64,000 nt of DNA from Bacteroidales bacterium (GTDB taxonomy: Bacteria > Bacteroidota > Bacteroidia > Bacteroidales > UBA12077). The stretch is from assembly GCA_003446015.1 (NCBI GenBank), contig DMBU01000068.1:27286-91285 (forward strand), given 5' to 3'. The position numbers and the translations under genes are program-made. This document shows, in pieces, positions 2,871 through 20,365 of this stretch. Under the pieces are notes generated by a model, which worked only from the letters and a program-made list of their open reading frames with translations, was not told the origin of the DNA and did not search any database. The first letter of the stretch is position 1, and each line of letters starts with the position of its first letter.

Positions 2871-3467
2871 TTGAAATTAAATCATATATATCCTTTAATT
2901 CAATTGAGATCACTAGATAATAAAACGATAGTTCAAGGAATTCGTAATCAGGATAAAGAAATTCTAAAAAGCATATACTCAATTTATTTCCCAACGATAA
3001 AGAGATTTATCCTTGATGCCAAAGGATCTGAGCAGGATGCAAAAGATGTATTCCAAGAAGGAATTATTATTATTTATCGAAAAATTAAAGAAGGAAACAT
3101 AAACCTTACTTCCTCGTTTAAATCATACATATATAGTGTTTGTCGATTTATTTGGATGAAACAATTATCGAAAGAAAGAGAAAATGCCGAGCAGCTTGAT
3201 GTTTATTTGGAATATGAAGAAATACCTGATGTGAGACTCGATGAGTATGAAAAAAACGAACAATACAAGCTTTATCAAAAGCATTTCTTAAGACTCGAAA
3301 AAGAATGCCAGAAGTTATTGCAATTATTTTTAAAAAATGTACCTTTAAAAGAAATCGCTGATGAATTAGGAATTGGAAGTCAGCAATATATTAAACGTAA
3401 AAAATATAAGTGTAAAGAACAACTTGTGCGGTATATTAAAAGTGATCCGAATTTTAAAGAAGAGTGA
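2871..3467 (+). CDS. Sigma-70 family (ECF-like) RNA polymerase sigma factor
   Basis: Region 2-like (DAKDVFQEGIIIIYRK...YIYSVCRFIW) and region 4-like HTH (PLKEIADELGIGSQQYIKRKKYKCKEQL). Its stop overlaps the next start (ATGA at 3464). Confidence 0.7.
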   Translation: MKLNHIYPLIQLRSLDNKTIVQGIRNQDKEILKSIYSIYFPTIKRFILDAKGSEQDAKDVFQEGIIIIYRKIKEGNINLTSSFKSYIYSVCRFIWMKQLSKERENAEQLDVYLEYEEIPDVRLDEYEKNEQYKLYQKHFLRLEKECQKLLQLFLKNVPLKEIADELGIGSQQYIKRKKYKCKEQLVRYIKSDPNFKEE

Positions 3468-4204
3468 TGGAGAATAAATTCGATTGGATTGAGAAGTATT
3501 TAATGAATGAAATGTCGGTTAGGGAACAAATAGAATTTGAAGAATCTTTAAGAACAAACCCTGATCTGATGAAAGAATTTCTACTTAGAAGGCGCATTAA
3601 CGATGCTATTACTGAGGATGATATTTTAAATTTAAGGCAAAACTTAAATCATATTATAAACCTCGAAACGGAGGAGCCTAACAAGCGACTATATATTTAT
3701 TCGGCTGTTGCAGCTATTCTGGTATTTGTTATCGTGGTATCCGGTATTTTTCTAAATAGGGAAAAGCAAGTTGAGAAAAACAGCCTTTTTGCATCTTATT
3801 ATTCTGCATATCCTGCCATGATGAGTTTTCGGTCTTTAAGCGATCAAAATGATACTACAAAGTTAATGTATGAAGCATTTAATTTTTACGATGAAAATGA
3901 ATATGATTCAGCAGCTGTTTATTTTAAAATGGTTCTGGAAAAAGATGCAACGAATACGATGAGCCAGTTTTATTTGTCGGTCTGCGAAATCGAGAATAAT
4001 AATTTGATCGAGGCTGAAGAATATTTAAGTGATCTTATTCAAAAAAAGAATCATATTTTCTGGGAACAATCAAATTGGTATTTGGCACTCGTTTATTTAA
4101 AACAAAATGAATTAGATAGTGCAGAAAGTATCTTAAATAAAGTAGTTCAAGAGAATATGACACAGAAACCTGATGCAGAAATTATTCTAAAGAAGTTGAA
4201 TTAA
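3464..4204 (+). CDS. Single-pass membrane protein with C-terminal TPR-like domain, putative anti-sigma factor
   Basis: Translationally coupled to the sigma gene. Has an N-terminal ~75-aa soluble segment, one TM (LYIYSAVAAILVFVIVVSGIFL) and TPR-like repeats. Paralog of 7480..8232. Confidence 0.55.
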   Translation: MMENKFDWIEKYLMNEMSVREQIEFEESLRTNPDLMKEFLLRRRINDAITEDDILNLRQNLNHIINLETEEPNKRLYIYSAVAAILVFVIVVSGIFLNREKQVEKNSLFASYYSAYPAMMSFRSLSDQNDTTKLMYEAFNFYDENEYDSAAVYFKMVLEKDATNTMSQFYLSVCEIENNNLIEAEEYLSDLIQKKNHIFWEQSNWYLALVYLKQNELDSAESILNKVVQENMTQKPDAEIILKKLN

Positions 4205-6983
4205 TTTTTCTTCGTTTTAGAAATAGGAACAATATTAAAGCAACAAGAACTAGCGTGATTCCAGAATAAACATAATATTTCGTATCCGATTCAAATAAAG
4301 CACTATTGCTGCCTATTACCACATATCCCGACCAAAAATAGGGATGAGCCCTTAACTGGTCAGCATTTTCGATAAATTCAATTTTCGATAATTGAAGTGA
4401 TTCGGATTTTGTTTTTCCTTTTAACAGATTTTTATAAAAGGACGTCATTAATTTAACACCTGATTTATCTTCAACAGACCAAAGAGTCATAATAATTGAA
4501 GGACATCCCGAATAAATAAACCCTCGGGCAAGACTCATTACTCCCTCGCCACGTTGCATTTTTCCACTACCGCTATTACATGAACTTAACACAGCCATTC
4601 TACTGTTTAATTTCATATTATATAACTCGTAGGTATTTAAAAATCCATCTTCTGTGCTATCTTCCTGTTGTGTAAAAGCCATTTTAGAATACATAGGATT
4701 TTGATCGTCCATAATGGTATGCATAGCTAAATGAAGAATATCATAAAAAGGAGCAACCTTCTTGAAGGTTTTCTCATTAGCTCTGTAATCCAAATACATA
4801 TCTCCATGAAGTAATTCTGAAATTTTTTGTACTTCATCTTTAATACCCTTTAAAGGAAATAATCGCTCTCTATATTCCTGGCGGAATGATGTAAATCCTT
4901 CGGGCATTGACCCAATGTTATTGTAGGTAGGAGCAAATGCTCCTAATTTCTTAGCTGCTGTTTGACTTCTATTATTATTGTTAAACAAAAATGAGGCTGA
5001 ATAAGAATAACTAAAATGATTCTTATACAATAAATATGGCAATCCCTTGTAGTTTATTCTATCAAATGCTATATACTCATTGGTCAAAACTTCAAATGGG
5101 AGATATGCAAGTTTTCCATCAGGAATTATAATCAGATTCTTATTCCTTATTATATTCTCAATAGGTTTTAATAATTGATTGTAAATATAAAAAGATGATT
5201 CCTGATACTGCTTAAACTCCTGATACCCGTGATTTGAAAAATTATTATTCGATAAAGCATTTAATAATTTATCAAGATGATTAATAAAAACCTGATCCAT
5301 AGCCTGTTCAAGGATGTTTGAGTTCTGTTTTCCTATAACAATGGTATATATTTTATTACTAGTAATAAAGTATTCGATAAGTACATCTTTTCGCTTTAGC
5401 TTTTTTTGAACTTCATCTATGCTCAGGTTATGTTGTACTTGTTTTAGGGCATAATAATTTTGAAAATTATGTTCAAGGTAAATGGTTAAATCATCGAACT
5501 CTCTTTTTTTCTCAAAAAGATATTTATTCCAGTATTCTAATTTATTTTGATCGGGATCTTGCTTCTTTTTTTCTTCGTAAATTAATTCCTCGTATGACCA
5601 GATACCCTTTTCGAGCTGTTTTTCTTTGGTGATAAGTGAATCAGGAATACCTCCAATATTTAATGCATGGGTATTTTTGAGCGCTTCTGTTAAAATAGCC
5701 GACTTTCCATCTTCACTATAATTAAAAGCTTTTTCCAGGAATTCGTTGTCATTGGTTAAATGGTATAACTTATAACTAGTTTGTAAAGCACTTGAAAAAG
5801 TTTCAAATTCATTATCAGCTAAAAACAATTTACTTTCCTCACTTAAATAACCTGCGCGAATTTTATGGATTGTTTCTATGGCACGGTCAAAGGTTTGTAA
5901 ACTTAGCCGGTAATTTGCTATATCATTCTGTTCTTCGGCCAGTTTAGATAAAGCATTAGCTTTATTTTTTAAGGCACTTAACAAATGTGTTTTTGATAAA
6001 ACCTGGTTTAAATCAGGATTAGAACTTAAACGAGTATCATTAAATTGGGGAGCTAAAGCAATTAAGGATTTTTGAAAATAAAACAATGCACTATCTAGGT
6101 TTGAGTCTAAGTAAAACTCACCTAAATTATTATAACCGCTTGAAATATTCGGATGAAATTCCCCGAGATTTTGTTTATAAATTTCTAATGATTTTAATAA
6201 GTAATGCTTTGCTTTTATTTTATCATTTTTTTTAAATAAAAGCGATGAATAATTCATGTAGTTCAAAGCTAATCTCAAATTATCTCTCCCAAAATATTTA
6301 GTGGCCAGTTCAAATGCTTCTAAATAATATATTTCCGCTTTGTAATAATTAGAATCTTTTTGATAACATACAGCTAAATTTCCTAAAGTAGTATATTTTG
6401 ATTCTATATTTTTAAGGTTTAAACTAATAGAGTAATAAAGAATTGCTTGGGAATAATCCCCATTTTTTCTATAAATATTACCAAGATTATTGTAAGTTGA
6501 TGCTAATTGATTCTTATAGGTAATAGAATCCTGTTTAAAAATATGAAGAGCTCTTAAATGAAAATCTTTAGCCTTAGCATAATCCTGCTGAATGAAATAA
6601 ATATTTGCTTTGTTCCCATAAATATATGCCAATAAGGACTGGTTATTATTTTTAAGATATATTTCCTCGGATTTATCATAGCATTCAACAGCTTCTTCAT
6701 ATTTTCCTAAAAGTTTATTAATAATACCTAAACTCTGGTATGCATTGGCAAGAAGAGTACTATCAGTTTCTTGAAAACTTTCATAGACAAGAACTGCTTT
6801 TTGAGTATAAAGTAATGCACTGTCTAAAATTCCTGTTTTTCCGAGATTTACCCCTTTTGTATAAAATATTTCTGCATTTTTCAATTGATAAACTCGATTA
6901 ATACTATCCGCAGGTTCACCAAAAGCAAATAGCCTGAGCGTAAAAAACAGAAACAAGTTAAAAATTAAATATTTCAAATGCAT
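4182..6983 (-). CDS. Secreted, C-terminally membrane-anchored TPR-CHAT (caspase-like) domain protein
   Basis: N-terminal signal-like segment (MHLKYLIFNLFLFFTLRLFAFG). Many TPR repeats. CHAT-type His/Cys dyad context (DILHLAMHT ; AVLSSCNSGSG). C-terminal TM followed by KRRK. Confidence 0.8.
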   Translation of the reverse strand: MHLKYLIFNLFLFFTLRLFAFGEPADSINRVYQLKNAEIFYTKGVNLGKTGILDSALLYTQKAVLVYESFQETDSTLLANAYQSLGIINKLLGKYEEAVECYDKSEEIYLKNNNQSLLAYIYGNKANIYFIQQDYAKAKDFHLRALHIFKQDSITYKNQLASTYNNLGNIYRKNGDYSQAILYYSISLNLKNIESKYTTLGNLAVCYQKDSNYYKAEIYYLEAFELATKYFGRDNLRLALNYMNYSSLLFKKNDKIKAKHYLLKSLEIYKQNLGEFHPNISSGYNNLGEFYLDSNLDSALFYFQKSLIALAPQFNDTRLSSNPDLNQVLSKTHLLSALKNKANALSKLAEEQNDIANYRLSLQTFDRAIETIHKIRAGYLSEESKLFLADNEFETFSSALQTSYKLYHLTNDNEFLEKAFNYSEDGKSAILTEALKNTHALNIGGIPDSLITKEKQLEKGIWSYEELIYEEKKKQDPDQNKLEYWNKYLFEKKREFDDLTIYLEHNFQNYYALKQVQHNLSIDEVQKKLKRKDVLIEYFITSNKIYTIVIGKQNSNILEQAMDQVFINHLDKLLNALSNNNFSNHGYQEFKQYQESSFYIYNQLLKPIENIIRNKNLIIIPDGKLAYLPFEVLTNEYIAFDRINYKGLPYLLYKNHFSYSYSASFLFNNNNRSQTAAKKLGAFAPTYNNIGSMPEGFTSFRQEYRERLFPLKGIKDEVQKISELLHGDMYLDYRANEKTFKKVAPFYDILHLAMHTIMDDQNPMYSKMAFTQQEDSTEDGFLNTYELYNMKLNSRMAVLSSCNSGSGKMQRGEGVMSLARGFIYSGCPSIIMTLWSVEDKSGVKLMTSFYKNLLKGKTKSESLQLSKIEFIENADQLRAHPYFWSGYVVIGSNSALFESDTKYYVYSGITLVLVALILFLFLKRRKINSTSLE

Positions 6984-7201
6984 TTTTTTTACTTATTGCT
7001 CAAGTATACTTAAAAATTGCCAAAAAGTTTAAAAAAAAGTCAAAAATAAGTTGCAGTAAATCAACTGATTATGTAAAAATATGAAAAAAAATAAAAAAAA
7101 GTTGAAAATAGGGGGTCACCTTTTTGCAATTTCCGGAATTAATAGGTGAGAAGACATTAAAGATAAAACTAAAGTAAATTAATTATTAAAAAACATAAAC
7201 C

Positions 7202-7360
7202 ATGAAAACATTAAAAAACATTTTCGGAATTGAAGAAACAAAAAAAACAATAAATAATTTTTCAGGTAAACTGGATTTACATGCAATGATTTTGATTAAA
7301 GGTGGTGATGGGGATGATGATGATTTATGGCCACCTACAATTGGATCTGGTACAAACTAA
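7202..7360 (+). CDS. Unannotated 52-aa double-glycine-leader peptide (MKTLKNIFGIEETKKTINNFSGKLDLHAMILIKGG|DGDDDDLWPPTIGSGTN)
   Basis: Hand-translated ATG..TAA ORF. The MK-LKN start and IKGG end resemble the leaders at 12272, 12570 and 12971. A hairpin plus T-run follows. Confidence 0.6.
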   Translation: MKTLKNIFGIEETKKTINNFSGKLDLHAMILIKGGDGDDDDLWPPTIGSGTN

Positions 7361-7401
7361 TCGCTTACCCTTTCGATTCAAATATACGTTCTTAAAGTGT
7401 T

Positions 7402-7435
7402 GGCCAATTCAATTCCCGTTGGGTTGGCCTTTTTG
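7402..7435 (+). terminator. Hairpin plus T-run downstream of the small peptide ORF
   Basis: GGCCAA / TTGGCC stem with a 16-nt loop, then TTTTT. Confidence 0.45.
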
Positions 7436-7479
7436 TCGAAACCATTCTGCCGAAAGGCAGATTAAAAAATAAAATAAAT

Positions 7480-8232
7480 ATGCAAACCAATTTTGAAACA
7501 ATTGAAAAATATATCGATGGCGAGCTGAAAGGAAACGAGTTACTCAAATTTGAGGAATTGCTTTCAATCGATCCCGATATAAAGCGCGATTATAAGTTGA
7601 GTTTGGAACTTAACAACTCCATCATGGAAGATGATGTTATAGCGCTAAGAGAAACAATGAACTACATGTACCAGGATGAAACAATTGTTAAAAGAATTCC
7701 AACGGTATTTACAAAACGAAAGTTTTATTATTATGCTGCGGCATCGGCAGCTTTACTTATTGCAACAGGTGGTTTAATGCAAAGATTATCCGGACCTGAA
7801 ATGAACAATACACGGGTATTCGAAAAGTATTATGCTCCTTATGAAGTTACGGTAACATATCGTTCTGGAAACACCGAGGTGGATCGTTTACTATTAAATG
7901 CACTGGAGCGTTACGAAGAAAAGGATTATGAATATGCCCTGGTACTTTTCGAAGAAGTTTTGGAGTCGCGGCAAAACGATATGGCTGTAAACCTATATTC
8001 AGGTATATCTTACATGGAAGAAGAAAAGTATCAAAAAGCTACAAAATCGTTTAGTAATATTATCTCCGATAAGGATAATTTATTTATTGAGCAAGCTAAC
8101 TGGTACCTGGCGATGTGCTATTTGAAAACTGAAAAAACAGATAAAGCACAAGATGTTTTAAGAGAAATTATTAATGAAGAAAGTTATTATAAAGAACAGG
8201 CAGCCAGGGTTTTAGAGGATATCGGAAATTAG
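7480..8232 (+). CDS. Single-pass membrane TPR protein, paralog of 3464..4204 (anti-sigma-like or LytTR-inhibitor-like)
   Basis: Same architecture and alignable N- and C-terminal blocks (IEKYIDGEL...; NWYLAMCYLK vs NWYLALVYLK). No sigma gene lies next to it. Confidence 0.5.
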   Translation: MQTNFETIEKYIDGELKGNELLKFEELLSIDPDIKRDYKLSLELNNSIMEDDVIALRETMNYMYQDETIVKRIPTVFTKRKFYYYAAASAALLIATGGLMQRLSGPEMNNTRVFEKYYAPYEVTVTYRSGNTEVDRLLLNALERYEEKDYEYALVLFEEVLESRQNDMAVNLYSGISYMEEEKYQKATKSFSNIISDKDNLFIEQANWYLAMCYLKTEKTDKAQDVLREIINEESYYKEQAARVLEDIGN

Positions 8233-8263: not shown

Positions 8264-9022
8264 ATGATGAAAGATAAGGTTAAAACCATAACTGACAATA
8301 CCATGAAAGATAACTGGAAAAAACACAATACTGAGAAAATTAGTTTTTTATCGCATATTTCTCATGGTATCCGAACTCCATTAAACTCCATCATGGGTTT
8401 TTCAAAATTGCTCACGTTAAGAGATCTTGTGGACAAAAAGCAAAAGGAATATGTTCAGGGAATTCTAAACGGAAGCAATTTATTACTTCAGTTTGTTGAT
8501 AATGTGATGGATTTATCTCAATTTGAAGCAAACAATTATTCGTTAAGAATAAAGGACTGCGATATAAATCAGGTAATATGGGAATTTACAGAAGATTTTT
8601 ACAATCAAAAGATTGAAAATAGAGATACCAACATAAATCTTGTGCTAGTGTGGGAAAGTGATGTTAAAGACCTGGTGGTTGAAACAGATGCTCTATTACT
8701 GAAAAAAGCCTTACAAAGAATTGTTAATCTTGTTTCTACAAAATATCCTATTTCAGAGTTTGAGTTAGGCTATCGAATTCTCGAAAATAAATCTTTGTGC
8801 ATTTATGTTCGACCAGCAAAAGAAAAATTAACGGAAGAAGATTTATTAATCGATCAACAGTTTTATTCAATTGATGATTACAATTCATTTGAATATTTTA
8901 ATTATAAAGTTCTTTATAGCGCAGTATTAATGTTAAGAGGCGAACTAACATTAAATTCCGAAAATCAGGAATTTTCTTTTATTATTCCTACGAAATATGA
9001 CATGAACAATATATTAATCTAA
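8264..9022 (+). CDS. HisKA (H-box) protein without sensor, TM or recognisable ATP-binding G-boxes
   Basis: H-box FLSHISHGIRTPLNSIMGF near the N-terminus. The C-terminal half lacks DxGxG/GxGxG motifs. No hydrophobic segment. Confidence 0.6.
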   Translation: MMKDKVKTITDNTMKDNWKKHNTEKISFLSHISHGIRTPLNSIMGFSKLLTLRDLVDKKQKEYVQGILNGSNLLLQFVDNVMDLSQFEANNYSLRIKDCDINQVIWEFTEDFYNQKIENRDTNINLVLVWESDVKDLVVETDALLLKKALQRIVNLVSTKYPISEFELGYRILENKSLCIYVRPAKEKLTEEDLLIDQQFYSIDDYNSFEYFNYKVLYSAVLMLRGELTLNSENQEFSFIIPTKYDMNNILI

Positions 9023-9037
9023 TTAAAATAAATAATT

Positions 9038-9391
9038 ATGAGTACATATAACATATACGTTCCCACCGAAAAAGGTAAAATGAAGATAGATTGTAGTCAG
9101 ATTTTGTATATTGAATCAAGTCTGCAATTTACCAGAATAACATTTGTAAATAATGAGAACCTTGAGCTATTGTTAACGATGAGCGAAACAGAACATTTGC
9201 TTTTTAATCAGGGTTTCTTCCGTTTTAACAATAAGTATCTGGTTAATCTTAAATATGTTGAGGTTGTATTTCCATCCGATGCTTCAAAAGTTGTATTAGA
9301 AAACGGGAAGGAAATATTTGTTAACCACAACAAAAAGGAGGAATTGTTTGAAAGTTTGCGTCAGGTTTATGATCTGCAAGAATTAGCATAG
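9038..9391 (+). CDS. Stand-alone LytTR DNA-binding domain protein (no receiver domain)
   Basis: 117 aa. LytTR-like core FFRFNNKYLVNLKYV. Confidence 0.65.
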   Translation: MSTYNIYVPTEKGKMKIDCSQILYIESSLQFTRITFVNNENLELLLTMSETEHLLFNQGFFRFNNKYLVNLKYVEVVFPSDASKVVLENGKEIFVNHNKKEELFESLRQVYDLQELA

Positions 9392-9490
9392 TGTTTCAAT
9401 TAAGGTTTGATGTTATTAACCCGTGAAATGCCATCTCCGGATCATAAGATTTGGAGATGGTAAATTTATTAACCCGTTAAATGATGATTT

Positions 9491-9826
9491 ATGGAAAATG
9501 TTGCAATTCATATAAACAGGCCCAAAACCAGCGATCTTAAAGAAGTTGTATTTTTAGAATCCATAGGAGGATTTACAAGAAAATATTGCAATAATGGAAG
9601 AGAATTTTTAGTTGAAAATGATTTACATAAACTAGAGGAAAGCCTACCTAAAGAAAAATTCTTTAAAATAAACGATTCGTTTATTATAAATGCCGACTAT
9701 TTAAAACGAATAAAAGTTCGGGCAATAAAAAATGTTTTATTACTAGGAGGAATAGAATTAAACATTGCTCAGGACAGATACTGGGAACTGGTTAAGTTTC
9801 TGAAATTTAAATATAATGTTTGGTAA
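9491..9826 (+). CDS. Stand-alone LytTR DNA-binding domain protein (no receiver domain)
   Basis: 111 aa. FFKINDSFIINADYLKRI. Clear paralog of 9885..10235. Confidence 0.7.
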   Translation: MENVAIHINRPKTSDLKEVVFLESIGGFTRKYCNNGREFLVENDLHKLEESLPKEKFFKINDSFIINADYLKRIKVRAIKNVLLLGGIELNIAQDRYWELVKFLKFKYNVW

Positions 9827-9884: not shown

Positions 9885-10235
9885 ATGACGAAAAAGGCTA
9901 TTCTATTTAATGATAATGATAATTCGTTACTAGTAAAAAAACTTGACGAGATTGTTTATATGGAATCTTTCGGATGCAAGACCAAAACTTGTTTTTGCGA
10001 TGGGAAGGAACTTTTAATTAAAAAATATTTAAGTCAGGTTGAAGAATCTTTACCAAGTGAGAATTTTTTTAAAGTACATAAGTCGTTTATTATTAATATT
10101 AAATATCTCAAAGGGATTAATGTCAATACAAAGAAATCTGTTTTATTGAATGATGGGATCGAAATTAAAATCTCACATAGAAAATATAAAGATTTTATGG
10201 AATTCGTAAAAAATCGTTTTGTTATCTGGCAGTAA
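9885..10235 (+). CDS. Stand-alone LytTR DNA-binding domain protein (no receiver domain)
   Basis: 116 aa. FFKVHKSFIINIKYLKGI. Confidence 0.7.
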   Translation: MTKKAILFNDNDNSLLVKKLDEIVYMESFGCKTKTCFCDGKELLIKKYLSQVEESLPSENFFKVHKSFIINIKYLKGINVNTKKSVLLNDGIEIKISHRKYKDFMEFVKNRFVIWQ

Positions 10236-10255: not shown

Positions 10256-10295
10256 AAAGACCTAACAAGTTTAAAAATTTGTTAGGTCTTTTTTT
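10256..10295 (+). terminator. Strong rho-independent terminator ending the regulatory gene run
   Basis: Perfect 13-bp stem AAAGACCTAACAA / TTGTTAGGTCTTT with a 10-nt loop and a T-run. Confidence 0.8.
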
Positions 10296-10547: not shown

Positions 10548-12164
10548 GTGAAAAATACTTCTATTTTTTTATTAAAAAAGCTTCTTAAAGCCTACACGAT
10601 TAAATTAGATGAAAAGGAGCTGGAATTTCAGCTATTAAGTCATCCTTCGTTTCCAAGTTTGCATTCTTTGACTGGCGTTCTTGACCATTTTAAAATAGAA
10701 AATGTTGCTCTGGAAGTTCCAAATAATTTGGAAACCCTAAGCCAAATGCCTAAAGTTTTTATTGCATATATAAAAAAGGGAAAAAGTGATGATTTGGTAT
10801 TGGCCACAATTGCCGACTCTCAGGTTACACTTATCTATAACGATAAAATTAGAGAAGTTTTATCATTAAATCAATTTTGTGAAATTTGGTCCGGGATTTT
10901 TATAGCCATTGAAAAAGATAATGAAGTAATTTCAAAATCAAAAGTAAGCCTAAAAGGTTTAAGAGCCTTACCTGTATTACTTACATTACTTGCGCTAATT
11001 ACGTTATTTTTTACTTTTAAACCAGGGTTGTTTCAATCAATTCATTTCTTACTTTCGTTTATCGGATTTGGGGTAAGTATAATAATAGTAAAACATGAAT
11101 TAGGACTTTATTCAAGGATTGCAGATAAAGTTTGCTCAGGAAATTACAAGAAAATTAATTGTGATGAGGTACTTAAATCAAAGGCAGCGTCATTCTTAGG
11201 ATTTATTAAATTAAGTGATATTGGAATTGTCTATTTTATTTCAATGATTTTATCATGGATGCTTATTATTATAAGTGGAGCCAGCAATACAACAATAATT
11301 TTAATTACTATACTGGCACTGCCGTTTACACTATATTCTGTTTCATATCAATATTTTATAGTAAAAAAATGGTGTGTGCTATGTTTAAGTATTGTTTTAA
11401 TACTGTGGTTACAAGCATTCTCATTGTATTATAGTGATTTTAAATTTAATCAGGTTATACTTAGCCCAATTAGTTTGAAGTTAATTGTAGTTAGTGTACT
11501 ATTTTCAATTGTTGCCTGGCAATTTATTTTACCTAGACTAAAAAAAGAGCAGGCTTTTGTTAAGCTTAAAATAGAACATTTTAAGTTTAAACGGAACTTT
11601 AGCTTGTTTAAAGCACTGCAATCAGTAATAAATCCAATAAATACAACTATAAATGGTATACAGGAAATTCAATTTGGCAATAACCCAAAATTCCTTCATG
11701 TAATAATAATTACAAACCCATTGTGTGGGTACTGCAGGGAAACTCATGCTTTAGTTGAAAAATTACTGGAAAGAACAGGTGTCGAGTTGCAGGTTACAAT
11801 AAGATTTAATGTAAGTCTAAAAGAAGAATCTATAGATACCTCAATAGCACATAAACTTTTCGAAACATATAATGCAAAAGGGGAGAAAGAGTGTTTAAAC
11901 GCGATGCACGATATTTATGGTAAACTAAACCCAACGGACTGGTTCAAGAAATGGGGAGAACCTTCAAGTCATCAATATATAGAGTCATTAAGTAAGCAGA
12001 AACAGTGGTGTGTTAAATCAAATATAAATTTCACCCCCGAAATTTTAGTAAATGACAAAGCATTTCCAAAGGAATATGAGCGGTTGGATTTACTATATTT
12101 CTTAGACGATATTATTGAAGATGTTAGGGAGGAAACATTGGTTTTAATTAAGGAAGAAGTATAG
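10548..12164 (+). CDS. Fusion protein: degenerate C39-like N-domain, VKOR (vitamin K epoxide reductase) membrane domain and thioredoxin/DsbA-like domain
   Basis: N-terminal ~130 aa resemble a C39 domain but lack the Cys and His. VKOR loop cysteines CSGNYKKINC and membrane CXXC (WCVLC). C-terminal thioredoxin-type CGYC. GTG start taken from the ORF track. Confidence 0.7.
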   Translation: MKNTSIFLLKKLLKAYTIKLDEKELEFQLLSHPSFPSLHSLTGVLDHFKIENVALEVPNNLETLSQMPKVFIAYIKKGKSDDLVLATIADSQVTLIYNDKIREVLSLNQFCEIWSGIFIAIEKDNEVISKSKVSLKGLRALPVLLTLLALITLFFTFKPGLFQSIHFLLSFIGFGVSIIIVKHELGLYSRIADKVCSGNYKKINCDEVLKSKAASFLGFIKLSDIGIVYFISMILSWMLIIISGASNTTIILITILALPFTLYSVSYQYFIVKKWCVLCLSIVLILWLQAFSLYYSDFKFNQVILSPISLKLIVVSVLFSIVAWQFILPRLKKEQAFVKLKIEHFKFKRNFSLFKALQSVINPINTTINGIQEIQFGNNPKFLHVIIITNPLCGYCRETHALVEKLLERTGVELQVTIRFNVSLKEESIDTSIAHKLFETYNAKGEKECLNAMHDIYGKLNPTDWFKKWGEPSSHQYIESLSKQKQWCVKSNINFTPEILVNDKAFPKEYERLDLLYFLDDIIEDVREETLVLIKEEV

Positions 12165-12210: not shown

Positions 12211-12260
12211 AAAAACCGAAACCTTGACGGTTTTAAGTGCTCAAGGTTTATTAACCCAAA
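12211..12260 (+). promoter_or_regulatory. Conserved precursor 5' element, copy 1
   Basis: AAAAACCGAAACCTTGACGGTTTTAAGTGCTCAAGGTTTATTAACCC ends 14 nt before the ATG at 12272. Near-identical copies lie at 12508 and 12912, and a diverged copy at 13420. Confidence 0.6.
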
Positions 12261-12271
12261 ATTTTATTAAT

Positions 12272-12418
12272 ATGAAAAATTTAAAAAATTTAAAAGGAGC
12301 TAAGAAGCTTAGCAAAATGGAGCAAAAAGCGATTAAAGGAGGCTATGCCTGCAGAGAACCCGAAATGTGGTGCCCTCCAGGAAGTTGTTGTGTAAATGGT
12401 CTTTGCAGGCTTTGTTAG
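12272..12418 (+). CDS. GG-leader precursor peptide A1 (MKNLKNLKGAKKLSKMEQKAIKGG|YACREPEMWCPPGSCCVNGLCRLC)
   Basis: In-frame internal start of ORF 12224..12418, chosen by paralog alignment. 24-aa leader ending in GG. 6-Cys core. Confidence 0.8.
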   Translation: MKNLKNLKGAKKLSKMEQKAIKGGYACREPEMWCPPGSCCVNGLCRLC

Positions 12419-12507: not shown

Positions 12508-12560
12508 AAAAACCGAAACCTTGACGGTTTTAAAATGCTCAAGGAATATGAACCTAAAAT
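12508..12560 (+). promoter_or_regulatory. Conserved precursor 5' element, copy 2
   Basis: AAAAACCGAAACCTTGACGGTTTTAAAATGCTCAAGGAATATGAACC upstream of the ATG at 12570. Confidence 0.6.
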
Positions 12561-12911: not shown

Positions 12912-12960
12912 AAAAACCGAAACCTTGACGGTTTTAAAATGCTCAAGGTTTATTAACTTA
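12912..12960 (+). promoter_or_regulatory. Conserved precursor 5' element, copy 3
   Basis: AAAAACCGAAACCTTGACGGTTTTAAAATGCTCAAGGTTTATTAACTT upstream of the ATG at 12971. Confidence 0.6.
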
Positions 12961-13419: not shown

Positions 13420-13468
13420 TAAACCGAAACCTTGAAGGTATTAGGTGTTCAGGAATTATTAACCCAAA
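13420..13468 (+). promoter_or_regulatory. Conserved precursor 5' element, diverged copy 4
   Basis: AAACCGAAACCTTGAAGGTATTAGGTGTTCAGGAATTATTAACCC upstream of the ATG at 13479. Confidence 0.5.
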
Positions 13469-16301: not shown

Positions 16302-18518
16302 ATGTCTTTCCCAAATTATAAACAACTCGATGCCATGGATTGCGGTCCAACCTGTTTAAGGATGATTGCAAAGCACTATGGCAAATCTTATTCATTACAA
16401 AACCTTCGTGATAAGAGCTACATTACCCGAGAGGGTGTTTCAATGCTTGGCATCAGTGATGCTGCTGAAGCAATTGGTTTTCGTAGTATGGGTGTTCGTA
16501 TTACGTTCGATCAACTCGTGAACGAAGCTCCACTGCCATGTGTGGCACATTGGAATCAAAATCATTTTGTTGTTGTATACAAGATTAAGAAAATCTCCCC
16601 AAACCCGTTTCGAAAAGGTGGAGTATTTGTTTATGTTTCTGACCCTGCTCGAGGGTTAATAAAATTTACTAAGGAAGAATTTGAAAATGCTTGGGCAAAT
16701 ACAAAAGAAGACGGAGAGGAAAAGGGCCTTTGCCTTTTACTTGAACCAACACCAGATTTTTACAAGGCCGATGACGAGAAGTTGAATAAATCCGGATTTA
16801 AGTTTTTGTTTTCTTATTTACGACCATATAAAAAGATTATAGTTCAATTATTCCTTGGACTGTTGTTAGGGAGTTTACTACAACTTATTTTTCCATTTTT
16901 AACACAGAGTATTGTCGATAAGGGTATTAATAATCAAAATCTCGATTTTGTTACATTAATCATCATAGCTCAATTAGTTTTAATATTTTCAAGAACTATA
17001 GTAGAATTCATTCGTAGTTGGATATTGTTGCACCTTGGAACAAGAATAAACATTTCTTTAATTTCTGATTTTTTAATCAAGTTAATGAAACTGCCGGTTT
17101 CATTTTTCGATACTAAAATGATTGGTGATATCATTCAGCGTATTGGCGATCATAAAAGAATAGAAAGCTTTTTAACTTCATCTACCTTAAATATTTTATT
17201 CTCCTTTATAAATCTTATCATCTTTGGTATTGTATTATTGTATTATAGTATAAACATTTTCTTAATATTTCTTGCAGGAAGTTTTCTCTATACTGCATGG
17301 GTTTACCTATTCATGAAAAAGCGACGCGATCTGGATAATCGTCGGTTTGCCCAAATGTCAAGTAATCAAAGCAATGTAATTCAGTTAATAACCGGAATGC
17401 AGGAAATTAAGCTGAATAATTGCGAAAAACAAAAGCGCTGGGAGTGGGAGAATATTCAGGCCCGATTATTTAAAGTGAATATGGCAAGTTTATCCTTAAG
17501 TCAGTATCAGCAGGCTGGAGGAGTTCTAATCAACGAAGTAAAAAATGTAGCTATAACTTTTATTGCTGCAAAATCAGTAATCGATGGCAATATGACATTG
17601 GGTATGATGTTGGCGGTTCAATATATTATTGGTCAGTTAAACAGCCCAATCAATCAAATGATTACTTTTTTACAATCAACACAGGATGCAAAAATAAGTT
17701 TGGAACGACTGGGTGAAATTCATCAAAAGGAAAATGAAGAATCTGATGAAGAACCAAAAATTGATATCTTACCTGAACATAGGGAGTTAAATCTTAATAA
17801 CATATTTTTTCAGTATGAAGGTCCTCACTCACCTTTTGTATTAGATGATGTAAATTTGAATATCCCCGAAAAGAAAATAACAGCCATTGTAGGGACCAGC
17901 GGAAGCGGAAAAACAACATTAATTAAGTTATTGTTAGGGTTTTATAATCCAACCAAAGGAAAAATAAATCTGGGCGATCTGTATTTGAATAATGTAAGTA
18001 ATAGAATGTGGCGCGATAAATGTGGAGTTGTAATGCAGGATGGATTTATATTTTCTGATTCAATTGCAAATAACATCTCGGTTATGGATGAATTTCCTGA
18101 CAGAGAAAGACTTTTACATGCTGTTAAAGTGGCCAATATTCAGGAATTTATTGAGTCATTGCCTTTAGGATACAATACTAAAATAGGACAAAATGGAGTA
18201 GGCTTGAGTCAGGGTCAAAAGCAGCGTATTTTAATAGCACGTGCCGTGTATAAAAATCCTGAGTTTATATTTCTTGATGAAGCTACCAATGCACTTGATG
18301 CCAACAATGAGAGGACCATCATGGAAAACCTTGATCAGTTTTTTAAAGGAAAAACAGTAGTTATTGTTGCACATCGATTAAGTACTGTTAAAAATGCCGA
18401 TCAGATTGTAGTATTGGAAAAAGGGAAAATTGTAGAATTAGGTACACATACTGAATTAGCTAAAAAGAAGGGAGTGTATTATGAGTTGGTTAAGAATCAG
18501 TTGGAGTTGGGTTCTTAA
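16302..18518 (+). CDS. Peptidase C39 domain-containing bacteriocin/peptide-cleavage-export ABC transporter
   Basis: N-terminal C39 with catalytic Cys (MDCGPTCLRM) and His (HWNQNHFVVV). 6-TM domain. Walker A GTSGSGKTT, signature LSQGQKQR, Walker B IFLDEAT. Confidence 0.9.
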   Translation: MSFPNYKQLDAMDCGPTCLRMIAKHYGKSYSLQNLRDKSYITREGVSMLGISDAAEAIGFRSMGVRITFDQLVNEAPLPCVAHWNQNHFVVVYKIKKISPNPFRKGGVFVYVSDPARGLIKFTKEEFENAWANTKEDGEEKGLCLLLEPTPDFYKADDEKLNKSGFKFLFSYLRPYKKIIVQLFLGLLLGSLLQLIFPFLTQSIVDKGINNQNLDFVTLIIIAQLVLIFSRTIVEFIRSWILLHLGTRINISLISDFLIKLMKLPVSFFDTKMIGDIIQRIGDHKRIESFLTSSTLNILFSFINLIIFGIVLLYYSINIFLIFLAGSFLYTAWVYLFMKKRRDLDNRRFAQMSSNQSNVIQLITGMQEIKLNNCEKQKRWEWENIQARLFKVNMASLSLSQYQQAGGVLINEVKNVAITFIAAKSVIDGNMTLGMMLAVQYIIGQLNSPINQMITFLQSTQDAKISLERLGEIHQKENEESDEEPKIDILPEHRELNLNNIFFQYEGPHSPFVLDDVNLNIPEKKITAIVGTSGSGKTTLIKLLLGFYNPTKGKINLGDLYLNNVSNRMWRDKCGVVMQDGFIFSDSIANNISVMDEFPDRERLLHAVKVANIQEFIESLPLGYNTKIGQNGVGLSQGQKQRILIARAVYKNPEFIFLDEATNALDANNERTIMENLDQFFKGKTVVIVAHRLSTVKNADQIVVLEKGKIVELGTHTELAKKKGVYYELVKNQLELGS

Positions 18519-18609: not shown

Positions 18610-18984
18610 ATGGGTGATTTCAGAGATTTAAAGGTTTATAAATTATCATATAAACTAGCAATGGAGATTTTTCATATAACTAAAAAATTTCCAAAAGAAG
18701 AAAGGTATTCCTTAACCGATCAGATTAGAAGGTCTTCACGTTCTGTAACTACAAACATCTCTGAATCATATCGGAAAAGAAGATATCCAAAACATTTTAT
18801 AAGTAAATTAAGTGATTCTGATGCTGAATTGGCTGAAACTCTTACTTGGTTAGACTTTTCGAAAGATTGTGAATACATTAATTATGAAGAACATACGTAT
18901 TTTATAAATGAGTATGAAGAGGTTGGAAAGATGTTAGGAAGTATGATAAATAAGCCAGAAAGATTTATAATAACAAATGGTTAA
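18610..18984 (+). CDS. Four-helix-bundle protein (23S rRNA intervening-sequence protein family)
   Basis: FRDLKVYKLSYKLAMEIFHITKKFPKEERYSLTDQIRRSSRSVTTNISE and the length are typical of this family. Confidence 0.8.
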   Translation: MGDFRDLKVYKLSYKLAMEIFHITKKFPKEERYSLTDQIRRSSRSVTTNISESYRKRRYPKHFISKLSDSDAELAETLTWLDFSKDCEYINYEEHTYFINEYEEVGKMLGSMINKPERFIITNG

Positions 18985-18987
18985 CAA

Positions 18988-19036
18988 CCAACTGCCAACT
19001 GCCAACTGCCAACTGCCAACTGCCAACTGTAAACTG
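18988..19036. repeat. Tandem heptamers CCAACTG x6 plus one degenerate unit (TAAACTG)
   Basis: Read directly. Translates as the artefactual QLPTANCQLPTANC at the 5' end of ORF 18977..20365. Confidence 0.9.
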
Positions 19037-19042
19037 AGCATT

Positions 19043-20365
19043 ATGAAAGAAAAACAAGAGTTCGAAAAAATAGAATTACGAAGCAACGAAGTACAAGAGA
19101 TCCTCACACGTCCTCCAAAATGGATTGTACGATGGGGAATAACAATGATCTTTGTGGTTATTATTGTTATTTTAACTGGTAGTTGGTTTTTTCAATACCC
19201 AGATATTGTTTCGGCTCAAATCGTTTTAACAACGGAGAACCCACCGGCTCCTGTTTTAGCAAAAACATCAGGGAAAATTCAAAAGCTACTTGTCTCAAAT
19301 GATGATGTAGTTGCTAAATATCAAGATTTAGGTGTTATCGAAAACCCTGGAAGTTTTGAATCAATTGTTAATCTATTAAAACAATTGGAATATTTTAAAG
19401 CAAATTTTAAACCAGGAGAGATTTTTAGTTTATCAAATCAATCTTATATTCTTGGTGATATCCAGTCAAGTTATGCCAGTTTTTATGCAAATGTTGAAGA
19501 GTACAACAAGTCGATCAAATTAAATTATCATAGACAAAAGCTGGATTTATATAAAAAGGAGCTAAAAAAATATGATAATTATTTAGCTAATATTATAACT
19601 CAAAACACAATTCTCCAGGAAGAACTTAATTTAACAAAGAAGCAGTATAACAGAGATTCTGTTTTATTTTCCAAAAATTTATTATCGGAATCTGATTTTG
19701 ACAAATCGAAGTCAGCTTTACTTTCTAAATTTTATAATTACGAGCAAAATAATGTAACTATTTCAAATGTTGAAATTCAGATTGAAAGTTTAAATCAAAG
19801 CATTCTCGAACTTGAGTTACAGCAAGAAAAACAAATTTCTGATCAAACTTCGCTTATTTGGGAATCGTACGAGAATCTCTTAGCAGCAATTAATTCATGG
19901 AAACACAACTATGTTTTAATTGCCCCAACTGATGGAATAGTAGGTTTTAATAAATTTTGGAATGAAAACCAATCGGTTAAAGCCGGGGAAACTGTAATGA
20001 CAATTATTCCAAGAGATGAGGGGAAATTAATAGGGAAAGTACAGTTAACCTTTCAAGGTGCGGGTAAAGTTAAAGAAGGTCAGAAGGTAAATATACAGTT
20101 TTCAAATTATCCATATATGGAATTTGGAATGGTTAGAGGTATCGTGAAATCTATTTCTCTTGCTCCCGATAATAATTATTATACTGCTGAAATTCAATTA
20201 CCCAATGGCTTAAAGACCTTTTACGGGATTGATCTGAATTTTAAACAAGAGATGCAAGGTACGGCCGAAATTATTACTGAAGATATGCGCTTATTGGAAA
20301 GAATCGTGAGGCCCCTCCAATTTATTTTAAATAAAAATACTAAGTTTGGGGATCACAACAATTAA
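19043..20365 (+). CDS. HlyD-family membrane fusion/secretion protein (partner of the C39-ABC exporter)
   Basis: Start moved to MKEKQEF, downstream of the repeat array. N-terminal TM, long coiled-coil region and a C-terminal beta-barrel-like region. Confidence 0.8.
   Translation: MKEKQEFEKIELRSNEVQEILTRPPKWIVRWGITMIFVVIIVILTGSWFFQYPDIVSAQIVLTTENPPAPVLAKTSGKIQKLLVSNDDVVAKYQDLGVIENPGSFESIVNLLKQLEYFKANFKPGEIFSLSNQSYILGDIQSSYASFYANVEEYNKSIKLNYHRQKLDLYKKELKKYDNYLANIITQNTILQEELNLTKKQYNRDSVLFSKNLLSESDFDKSKSALLSKFYNYEQNNVTISNVEIQIESLNQSILELELQQEKQISDQTSLIWESYENLLAAINSWKHNYVLIAPTDGIVGFNKFWNENQSVKAGETVMTIIPRDEGKLIGKVQLTFQGAGKVKEGQKVNIQFSNYPYMEFGMVRGIVKSISLAPDNNYYTAEIQLPNGLKTFYGIDLNFKQEMQGTAEIITEDMRLLERIVRPLQFILNKNTKFGDHNN

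Follow-up and report, generated by a model that had tools for sequence, protein, structure and literature searches.

A conserved gene module of a TPR-CHAT protease, an ECF-type sigma factor, an anti-sigma-like TPR protein and a double-glycine peptide in Bacteroidota: a candidate peptide-responsive sigma circuit

Introduction

The closest described relatives of the locus studied here are two systems in which a protease with tetratricopeptide repeats (TPR) and a CHAT domain is tied to the inhibitor of a sigma factor of the extracytoplasmic function (ECF) type. DdvA of Myxococcus is an anti-sigma factor with a periplasmic TPR-CHAT part, proposed to be a self-cleaving site-1 protease acting ahead of RseP-type cleavage and thought to sense a phage-related protein, and DdvA-like proteins were found in Myxococcota and one Comamonas species only (PMC11506125). 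In Craspase, the TPR-CHAT protease Csx29 cleaves Csx30, the inhibitor of the ECF-type CASP-sigma (PMC10028731). Single-pass anti-sigma factors with a dedicated periplasmic site-1 protease and a peptide-like signal are known from RseA/DegS/RseP and RsiW/PrsW, with DegS being activated by C-terminal peptides of outer-membrane proteins (PMC10028731, PMC11506125). The present analysis concerns a 64,000-nucleotide stretch of a Bacteroidales genome (contig DMBU01000068.1, positions 27,286 to 91,285; hereafter the window), in which a TPR-CHAT gene lies between an ECF-type sigma factor gene and a short gene for a double-glycine (GG) leader peptide, next to two genes for anti-sigma-like TPR proteins.

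A review notes that CHAT-domain genes occur near ECF54 sigma factors (PMC8999054), and CHAT goes unmentioned in the main text of the paper that reclassified the ECF sigma factors. Full-text literature searches around CHAT and sigma or peptide themes returned no description of the module, only DdvA, Craspase and a preprint on type III-B CRISPR-Cas. The module reported here is widespread in Bacteroidota and apparently undescribed.

Results

A conserved four-gene module

Relatives of the CHAT protein were collected by scanning one genome per species, which resulted in at least 577 confirmed stretches, and the best 80 loci were retained, representing Bacteroidales, Prolixibacteraceae, Lentimicrobiaceae, Rikenellaceae, Cytophagales, Lewinellaceae, Aquimarina and others. 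Neighbouring genes were typed by phmmer comparison of the window proteins with all open reading frames (ORFs) of these loci. Proximity was counted in the 40 loci whose flanks reach 4 kb or more on each side of the CHAT gene, and GG peptides in the 62 loci with at least 300 nt on its 5′ side. Catalytic residues and topology were read from an alignment of 31 CHAT homologs down to 28% identity, and the pairwise identities refer to 26 loci.

A sigma factor gene of the same type was located within 3 kb of CHAT in 35 of the 40 loci, and in 34 of them a gene for a TPR anti-sigma-like protein was within the same distance as well. An earlier note on this DNA, made from the sequence, had named conservation of this CHAT, sigma and TPR anti-sigma triad in Bacteroidota as one of the tests of its proposal, and with these 34 loci the triad is strongly conserved across the phylum. 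Two layouts recur: either the sigma and TPR genes form a pair convergent with CHAT, or the sigma gene alone is convergent with CHAT, with the genes for the peptide, the TPR protein and HisKA on its opposite side. The window combines both by duplication of the TPR gene. Locus L001, with a CHAT protein 63% identical to that of the window, is syntenic gene for gene, and two distant TPR homologs of ca. 30% identity (loci L081 and L082) sit in the same arrangement, also with GG-peptide genes 5′ of CHAT. On the basis of gene order and content across the loci, the conserved unit is made up of four genes, i.e. those for the peptide, the sigma factor, the TPR anti-sigma-like protein and the TPR-CHAT protein. 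Cultured carriers are Prolixibacter bellariivorans ATCC BAA-1284 (L016), Sunxiuqinia dokdonensis DH1, Ancylomarina longa T3-2 (L064) and Draconibacterium sp. IB214405 (L068). The database names of the module proteins are generic (“CHAT domain-containing protein”, “tetratricopeptide repeat protein”, “tol-pal system YbgF family protein”).

Our ORF map reproduced all gene coordinates, overlaps and motifs of the earlier note (Table 1). Translational coupling of the sigma gene to the gene for anti-sigma-like protein A is supported by a 4-nt overlap of stop and start (GAGTGATGG), and the gene for protein A in turn overlaps the convergent CHAT gene by 23 nt (4182-4204), as had been claimed. Proteins A and B, which the note had called paralogs, are 30% identical over their full length (E-value 7e-36), and the GG-peptide ORF is present between the two units.

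Table 1. Positions of the module genes, their main sequence elements and the associated genes in the window (nucleotide positions unless residues are given)
Feature	Position	Strand	Evidence or remark
ECF-type sigma factor (sigma2 + sigma4)	2871..3467	+	TIGR02937, Sigma70_r2
Anti-sigma-like protein A, coupled to sigma	3464..4204	+	ORF map, domain searches
TPR-CHAT protease, 933 aa	4182..6983	-	PF12770 180 bits, multiple TPR families
CHAT signal peptide (predicted)	~6921-6983	-	signal-like segment
CHAT TPR array	residues 30-310	-	
CHAT helical scaffold	between TPR array and CHAT domain	-	
CHAT domain	residues 530-895	-	PF12770
CHAT C-terminal transmembrane helix, then KRRK tail	~4206-4274	-	
HLAMHT with catalytic His H755 (codon 4719-4721)	4716..4733	-	invariant position
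LSSCNSG with catalytic Cys C802 (codon 4578-4580)	4569..4589	-	invariant position
Candidate ECF-type bipartite promoter motif GGGGGTCACCTTTT-N9-CGGAATTAAT	7111..7143	+	39.2 bits
GG-leader peptide, 52 aa	7202..7360	+	ORF; leader ends ...LIKGG
Terminator-like hairpin, 12-pair stem then T run	7402..7429	+	between peptide gene and gene for protein B
Anti-sigma-like protein B, paralog of A	7480..8232	+	domain searches, AF2 model
Soluble HisKA protein, degenerate ATP-binding domain	8264..9022	+	HisKA 3e-15
Three stand-alone LytTR proteins	9038-9391, 9491-9826, 9885-10235	+	PF04397 only
C39-peptidase ABC transporter	16302-18518	+	Peptidase_C39 1e-31, ABC_membrane, ABC_tran
HlyD partner	18977-20365	+	HlyD_3

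The sigma protein returned TIGR02937 (sigma70-ECF) with 69 bits over residues 32-188 (cut-off 42.9) and the Pfam family Sigma70_r2 with 27 bits (cut-off 24), and it has the layout of ECF (group IV) sigma factors, with sigma2 and sigma4 only in ca. 190 aa. Since most of its homologs in the databases are 187 aa long, translation probably begins at the TTG at 2904.

The absence of cas genes stated by the earlier note agrees with the ORFs and domains of window positions 1-30 kb, among which no cas gene was found. Cas7-11/gRAMP, Csx30 and a CRISPR array were likewise absent from these ORFs and domains and from the neighbours in loci L001-L086. A PADLOC scan of seven proteins returned nothing beyond generic TPR models, and a defence island of the Craspase or DdvA type at this locus was rejected on these two grounds.

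A promoter motif common to peptide and sigma genes

Within the 110 nt 5′ of the peptide ATG codons, a bipartite motif of fixed spacing was identified, nGGGGTnACCTTTT-N9-CGGaATawA, which resembles ECF promoters in its AAC-like -35 element, T-rich spacer and distance of ca. 16 nt to the -10 element; GGGGTnACCTTTT-N9-CGGAATA is a candidate promoter of the module sigma factor. The motif is conserved 5′ of GG peptides in ca. 30 loci. In the window it ends 58 nt before the peptide ATG, and it forms a conserved block in the alignment of the window with L001 and L003. The weight matrix was built from the peptide upstream regions only, leaving the sites at sigma genes outside the training set. In the whole window it had a single match of at least 14 bits, the one listed in Table 1, and the next best scored 9.6 bits. 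No motif was found 5′ of the window sigma, CHAT, protein B, VKOR, precursor-peptide, radical-SAM and ABC genes, all of which scored 0 bits or less.

Most matches of at least 14 bits precede GG peptides. In addition, 13 matches were located at sigma genes, 3-17 nt ahead of the start as called, when about 0.07 would be expected by chance on a rough count (loci L009, L016, L021, L022, L036, L052, L053, L056, L057, L064, L068, L073 and L050, the site in the last falling inside a mis-called start). Since an ECF-type motif common to the sigma gene and one neighbour is the usual mark of an autoregulated sigma factor and its target, the module sigma factor most likely transcribes the peptide gene and, in other loci, also itself.

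The terminator-like hairpin that separates the genes for the peptide and protein B may be an attenuator that sets the peptide-to-sensor ratio; judged from the arrangement of the elements, the genes for protein B, HisKA and LytTR would be expressed by read-through past it.

The TPR-CHAT protein

The caspase-like His/Cys dyad described in the earlier note is intact, and H751, H755 and C802 are invariant across the 31 homologs. All 31 have a signal-like N-terminus, in which a basic stretch is followed by a hydrophobic one, with signal ends of the ..A|Q or ..S|Q type in several, and all 31 end in one hydrophobic helix and, behind it, a tail rich in Lys and Arg. No lipoprotein cysteine was found in the window protein. 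The layout is that of a type I membrane protein as far as sequence analysis goes, with the TPR array and the CHAT domain outside and the short tail in the cytoplasm, which agrees with the periplasm-facing orientation proposed earlier.

The AlphaFold2 (AF2) model (predicted local distance difference test, pLDDT, 84) is all-helical to residue 515 and continues as an alpha/beta CHAT domain. Foldseek queries with this model returned Csx29 chains first (8eey_B, E-value 8e-15), followed by separase (5e-13) and DdvA (3e-12; 8rw5, 8rot), with template modelling (TM) scores of merely 0.2-0.5, as expected for flexible multi-domain proteins. The N-terminal array matched the peptide-binding TPR domain of LGN with a target TM score of 0.8. 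This array is the fastest-evolving folded part among those compared, with a pairwise identity of 23% against 41% in the protease domain. Its rapid evolution would fit, though not prove, a specificity-determining receptor surface. The pairwise identity of the sigma factor is 41%.

The double-glycine peptide and its likely exporter

In the window peptide, ...LIKGG is followed by the predicted mature core DGDDDDLWPPTIGSGTN. The leader end ...LDLHAMILIKGG has hydrophobic residues at -4, -7 and -12, glycines at -1 and -2, and a short core behind them, as in GG-type leaders. ORFs of this kind, with an initial Met, the leader consensus L(S/T)xxE(L/M)xx(V/I)(K/R)GG and a short tail, were found just 5′ of CHAT in 34 of the 62 loci and number 40 in all. 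Their density is 0.52 per kb 5′ of CHAT and 0.0056 per kb elsewhere, a 93-fold difference.

Median core length is 17 aa and mean net charge is -3; Asp and Glu together make up 25% of the residues, Pro 16% and Cys 0.2%. The cores vary between clades and are conserved inside them: DDDLWPP is common to the window, L001 and L003; three members of one subclade (L054, L063 and L077) have IIIIPK(F) and its other members close variants of it; Draconibacterium-type loci have DVFDFEEE or a sequence very near to it; and the two Tangfeifania loci (L033 and L062) have PIIIT(D/E). Because of this conservation within clades, the GG ORFs are regarded as real and their cores as being under selection. Short, acidic and apparently unmodified cores would suit signals better than bacteriocins. 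In the subclade of L044, L045, L046, L054, L058, L063 and L077, the peptide gene is on the same strand as CHAT and close upstream of it. The cultured Draconibacterium sp. IB214405 (L068) has three tandem GG-peptide genes 5′ of CHAT (9260-9744), with nearly identical cores (..PPKSRDKDVFDFEEE).

The C39-peptidase ABC transporter and its HlyD partner are the likely processing and export route for the GG-leader peptides, and their homologs were found within 6 kb of CHAT in 11 of the 40 loci. Between the two window genes, a gene for a 23S rRNA intervening-sequence protein (18610-18984, bAvd-like four-helix bundle) is inserted, and a short tandem repeat (QLPTANC twice) is found just downstream, in the first part of the HlyD ORF.

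The anti-sigma-like TPR proteins

Proteins A and B have an N-terminal helical region, one transmembrane helix and three TPRs, with B being the form nearest to the family consensus. In protein A, the N-terminal region of ca. 65 aa resembles a zinc-less anti-sigma domain, a juxtamembrane motif LF..YY..Y......RS is conserved, and the three TPRs are on the periplasmic side. The AF2 model of protein B (pLDDT 75) consists, from N- to C-terminus, of three helices, a poorly defined transmembrane segment, a short helix, an extended segment, and three TPRs with a cap. Arg128 is invariant and Ser129 nearly so, both in the extended segment ahead of the TPRs. They belong to the periplasmic juxtamembrane motif of residues 110-132, LF..YY.PY......RS, which is non-helical yet confidently modelled, and which is a candidate docking or cleavage site on the basis of this model.

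The only recurrent Pfam match of the family N-termini was zf-HC2, in 10 of 32 sequences and at a weak best E-value of 3.7e-4. No conserved Cys or His was found in the alignment of the N-termini, which thus have no CHCC zinc site. The best match of the 32-sequence profile among PDB sequences was a Nif11 domain protein (9zn4_A) at a weak E-value of 7e-4, followed by noise; it concerns the N-termini encoded at 3464-3700 and 7480-7716. Nif11 domains form the leaders of natural-product precursors that are cleaved at GG. A common helical pattern may be all that the match reflects.

A proposed peptide-responsive circuit and its alternatives

We give nearly an even chance to an ECF sigma circuit that responds to the peptide, with the TPR anti-sigma protein being cleaved in trans by the CHAT protease in the periplasm. 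In its favour are the domains and motifs, the outward topology, the conservation of the module, the enrichment and the composition of the GG peptides, the promoter matches at sigma genes, the same-strand subclade, the rapid evolution of the CHAT TPR array, the fold matches and the two published precedents; the interpretation of the earlier note is partly supported by them. The N-terminal cytoplasmic domain of the TPR protein would hold the sigma factor at the membrane, and the C39-ABC/HlyD transporter would cut the peptide after its glycines and export it. The acidic, proline-rich mature peptide would be sensed in the periplasm, the likeliest receptor being the fast-evolving TPR array of the CHAT protein. 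Binding would activate the His/Cys dyad, and CHAT would then clip the periplasmic part of the anti-sigma protein in trans, as a site-1 protease, after which intramembrane and cytoplasmic proteolysis would release the sigma factor. Once free, it would drive transcription of the peptide operon, and of its own gene in many relatives, giving a positive feedback that resembles autoinduction in quorum sensing. The analysis itself shows the gene content, the topology, the intact dyad, the conserved module and the common promoter motif. The sigma/anti-sigma binding, the peptide as cue, the cleavage of the anti-sigma protein by CHAT, and the later proteolysis are the steps that we infer, and the cleavage of either paralog is drawn by analogy with the known systems. 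A bolder proposal, on balance doubtful, is that the module forms an undescribed system of peptide-based cell-to-cell signalling across Bacteroidota, with C39-ABC export, sensing by TPR-CHAT, cleavage of the anti-sigma protein in trans and re-induction of the peptide by the sigma factor.

Several observations weigh against this circuit. The anti-sigma assignment draws on weak zf-HC2 matches and gene order, and the profile of the 32 N-termini matched no anti-sigma structure among the PDB sequences. From the sigma side, a reciprocal check found a CHAT neighbour at two of four homologs of ca. 40% identity, and two were without one, so the sigma clade reaches somewhat beyond the module. The window (best score -0.6 bits) and L001-L003 are without the promoter motif 5′ of the sigma gene. 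By the strict pattern the GG peptide is present in only 34 of the 62 loci. In one closely read locus, from a Lentimicrobium sp. (L012, 7993-9201), a 402-aa protein with a signal-peptide-like N-terminus replaces it between sigma and CHAT, and in L050 (~7950) the sigma-type motif lies ahead of a signal-peptide protein with an N-terminus similar to that in L012. Finally, the TPR domain of the anti-sigma protein is itself of a peptide-binding type and, going by the model, could be the receptor instead.

This last point leads to an unlikely but distinct explanation, in which CHAT either trims the exported pro-peptide to its active form or degrades it, as a means of signal turnover or quenching, and the three-TPR domain of the anti-sigma protein is the receptor, freeing the sigma factor by a conformational change or with the help of another protease. 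The TPR part of protein B resembles SycD, PcrH, IpgC and Hop TPR1, which all bind peptides in extended form (acidic C-terminal ones in the case of Hop TPR1), and many peptide cores terminate in acidic residues; moreover, the peptide and CHAT genes are directly adjacent, in one subclade on the same strand. Yet this TPR domain is better conserved (32% pairwise identity) than the TPR array of CHAT, although the cores differ greatly between clades, and both solved precedents place the CHAT protease on the anti-sigma side.

The loci with secreted-type proteins raise another question: because such a protein takes the place of the peptide in L012 and follows the promoter motif in L050, the gene adjoining CHAT may be an output and not the input. 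The peptide or secreted protein would then merely belong to the sigma regulon, and the cue would be envelope damage, a competitor or phage protein, or a host factor, much as DdvA is thought to respond to a phage-related protein. Such an arrangement has a low probability in our view, since no defence genes were found and the PADLOC scan of seven proteins returned generic TPR models only, since a GG peptide, a C39 exporter and a sigma-type promoter on both the peptide and sigma genes are the classic signature of an autoinducing loop, and since short, acidic, Cys-free cores resemble signals and not effectors. The C-terminal region of the L012 protein resembles a type IX secretion system sorting domain, as judged by eye.

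Neighbouring genes

Taken together, the genes form a peptide natural-product locus of Bacteroidota type with a GC percentage of ca. 30. HisKA is a frequent fifth member of the module, found within 3 kb of CHAT in 11 of the 40 loci and always just 3′ of a B-type TPR gene. The window protein keeps the H-box (SHISHGIRTPL), had no match to HATPase_c, and has lost the N and G boxes relative to its homolog in L082; in L081 and L082 the HATPase_c domain is intact. By its sequence features it looks like a pseudokinase or a form that acts as a phosphatase only. No receiver-domain response regulator was found near it. The three LytTR proteins that follow are 111-117 aa long and without a receiver domain, and terminator-like hairpins are located 3′ of the first (9429-9462) and third (10256-10291) gene.

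The genes for protein B, HisKA and the three LytTR proteins follow each other on one strand with short gaps, and a TPR gene followed by HisKA recurs in 11 of the 40 loci and in L081 and L082. Instead of an anti-sigma protein, protein B could be a membrane inhibitor of the LytTR regulators or a partner of HisKA, and its cleavage by CHAT would then release LytTR proteins that turn on the cysteine-rich precursor genes further downstream. Streptococcal HdrRM and BrsRM, in which a receiver-less LytTR regulator is paired with a membrane inhibitor, offer a parallel. We hold this explanation to be very improbable: apart from the window, LytTR genes stand beside the module in L001 and L004 only, many loci have a single TPR protein away from the sigma gene with no other anti-sigma candidate beside sigma, and the cysteine-rich precursor genes carry a different, palindromic upstream motif. 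From their distribution, the LytTR genes are a clade-specific addition outside the conserved core. The same facts bear on two further suggestions of the earlier note. Release of the LytTR proteins is weakly supported given their restricted occurrence, and direct sigma control of the cysteine-rich precursor genes is not supported, as another motif precedes them and the sigma-type promoter occurs once in the window.

Downstream of LytTR are a gene for a fusion of C39-like, VKOR and thioredoxin-like parts, five further GG-leader ORFs, all with cysteine, and genes for a radical-SAM/SPASM enzyme, a CPBP protease, and the C39-ABC and HlyD proteins. The fusion (538 aa, 10548-12164), with a C39-like N-terminal domain followed by VKOR membrane and thioredoxin-like domains, lies just 5′ of the cysteine-rich peptide genes and is probably a disulfide-forming maturation factor. 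Four copies of GAAACCTTGACGGTTTTAA (12218-12236, 12515-12533, 12919-12937 and 13426-13444) are located ca. 35-55 nt 5′ of four GG-leader genes with ATGs near 12272, 12570, 12971 and 13479. No copy is expected by chance. The copies belong to a 53-nt repeat with the inverted repeat AACCTTGA-N12-TCAAGGTT. The motif differs from the sigma-type promoter and may be a site for the LytTR proteins or another regulator.

On the other side, a second, canonical ECF sigma gene (1798-2367) is directly beside the module, with genes for a small anti-sigma-like transmembrane protein (2369-2785) and, in divergent orientation, a DUF6249 protein (1313-1690). This set is syntenic in L001 and L002, and its sigma and DUF6249 genes are also found in L008. 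A terminator-like hairpin at 2809-2830 divides the two sigma units.

Comparison with known systems

The earlier note had taken Csx29 and Csx30 as its precedent. This stands in so far as a CHAT protease there cleaves a sigma inhibitor, and Csx29 is the best structural match of the window protein (8eey_B), a TPR-CHAT protease likewise tied to the inhibitor of an ECF-type sigma factor. However, Csx29 acts in the cytoplasm, where it is bound to Cas7-11 and target RNA activates it, whereas the window protease has a signal peptide and a transmembrane anchor, and the candidate sigma inhibitor in the window is a membrane TPR protein unrelated to Csx30.

The closest precedent is rather DdvA, not named in the earlier note, which has in common with the window module a periplasm-facing TPR-CHAT part, a His/Cys dyad, a genetic tie to an ECF sigma factor, a proposed role of CHAT as site-1 protease ahead of intramembrane cleavage, and the fold itself (8rw5 and 8rot, E-value ~3e-12). 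In DdvA, the anti-sigma domain, transmembrane segment and TPR-CHAT part form one polypeptide (N-terminus in, C-terminus out), whose self-cleavage would occur in trans between the members of a dimer. In the window these parts are split between a small anti-sigma-like TPR protein and a separate TPR-CHAT protein with a signal peptide and a C-terminal anchor; domain searches found no anti-sigma domain in the CHAT protein and no CHAT domain in the anti-sigma-like proteins. DdvA has a CHCC zinc site, which the window proteins are without, its regulon is a CBASS/CRISPR island, whereas the promoter target in the window is a GG peptide, and its hosts are Myxococcota and Comamonas, not Bacteroidota.

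With RseA/DegS/RseP and RsiW/PrsW the module has in common a single-pass anti-sigma-like protein with a periplasmic domain and, as proposed, a dedicated periplasmic site-1 protease that responds to a peptide-like signal. In contrast, the candidate site-1 protease is a caspase-fold CHAT protein instead of a serine or metalloprotease, and it is encoded in the module, apparently together with the activating peptide. Should the proposed circuit be correct, it would be a natural trans case of a periplasmic caspase-like protease acting on an anti-sigma protein, which for DdvA is proposed and not demonstrated, and the link between CHAT proteases and sigma factors would extend past CRISPR and phage defence.

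To our knowledge, peptide quorum sensing is not established in Bacteroidota, which dominate communities of the gut, the sea and sediments. The conserved cassette of peptide, sigma and protease genes, whose promoter can be recognised, is a directly testable candidate. The module also flags loci that are often beside exporters of bacteriocins or ribosomally synthesised and post-translationally modified peptides (RiPPs), and a synthetic peptide might switch on their expression.

The double-glycine pheromone circuits of Gram-positive bacteria, ComC/ComAB/ComDE and BlpC/BlpAB/BlpHR, use a membrane histidine kinase and a LytTR response regulator as sensor. As in these, a GG-leader gene in the window adjoins the genes presumed to encode the sensor, the locus includes a C39-peptidase ABC exporter, the promoter arrangement would allow autoinduction, and a cluster of the bacteriocin or RiPP type is linked. 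Instead of a kinase and regulator, the window has an ECF sigma factor, an anti-sigma-like protein and a periplasmic caspase-like protease in a Gram-negative Bacteroidota host, where the LytTR proteins are without a receiver and HisKA is soluble and degenerate. If the circuit is as proposed, it would be both a split, trans-acting version of DdvA and a Gram-negative counterpart of the Com and Blp circuits built from entirely different sensor parts.

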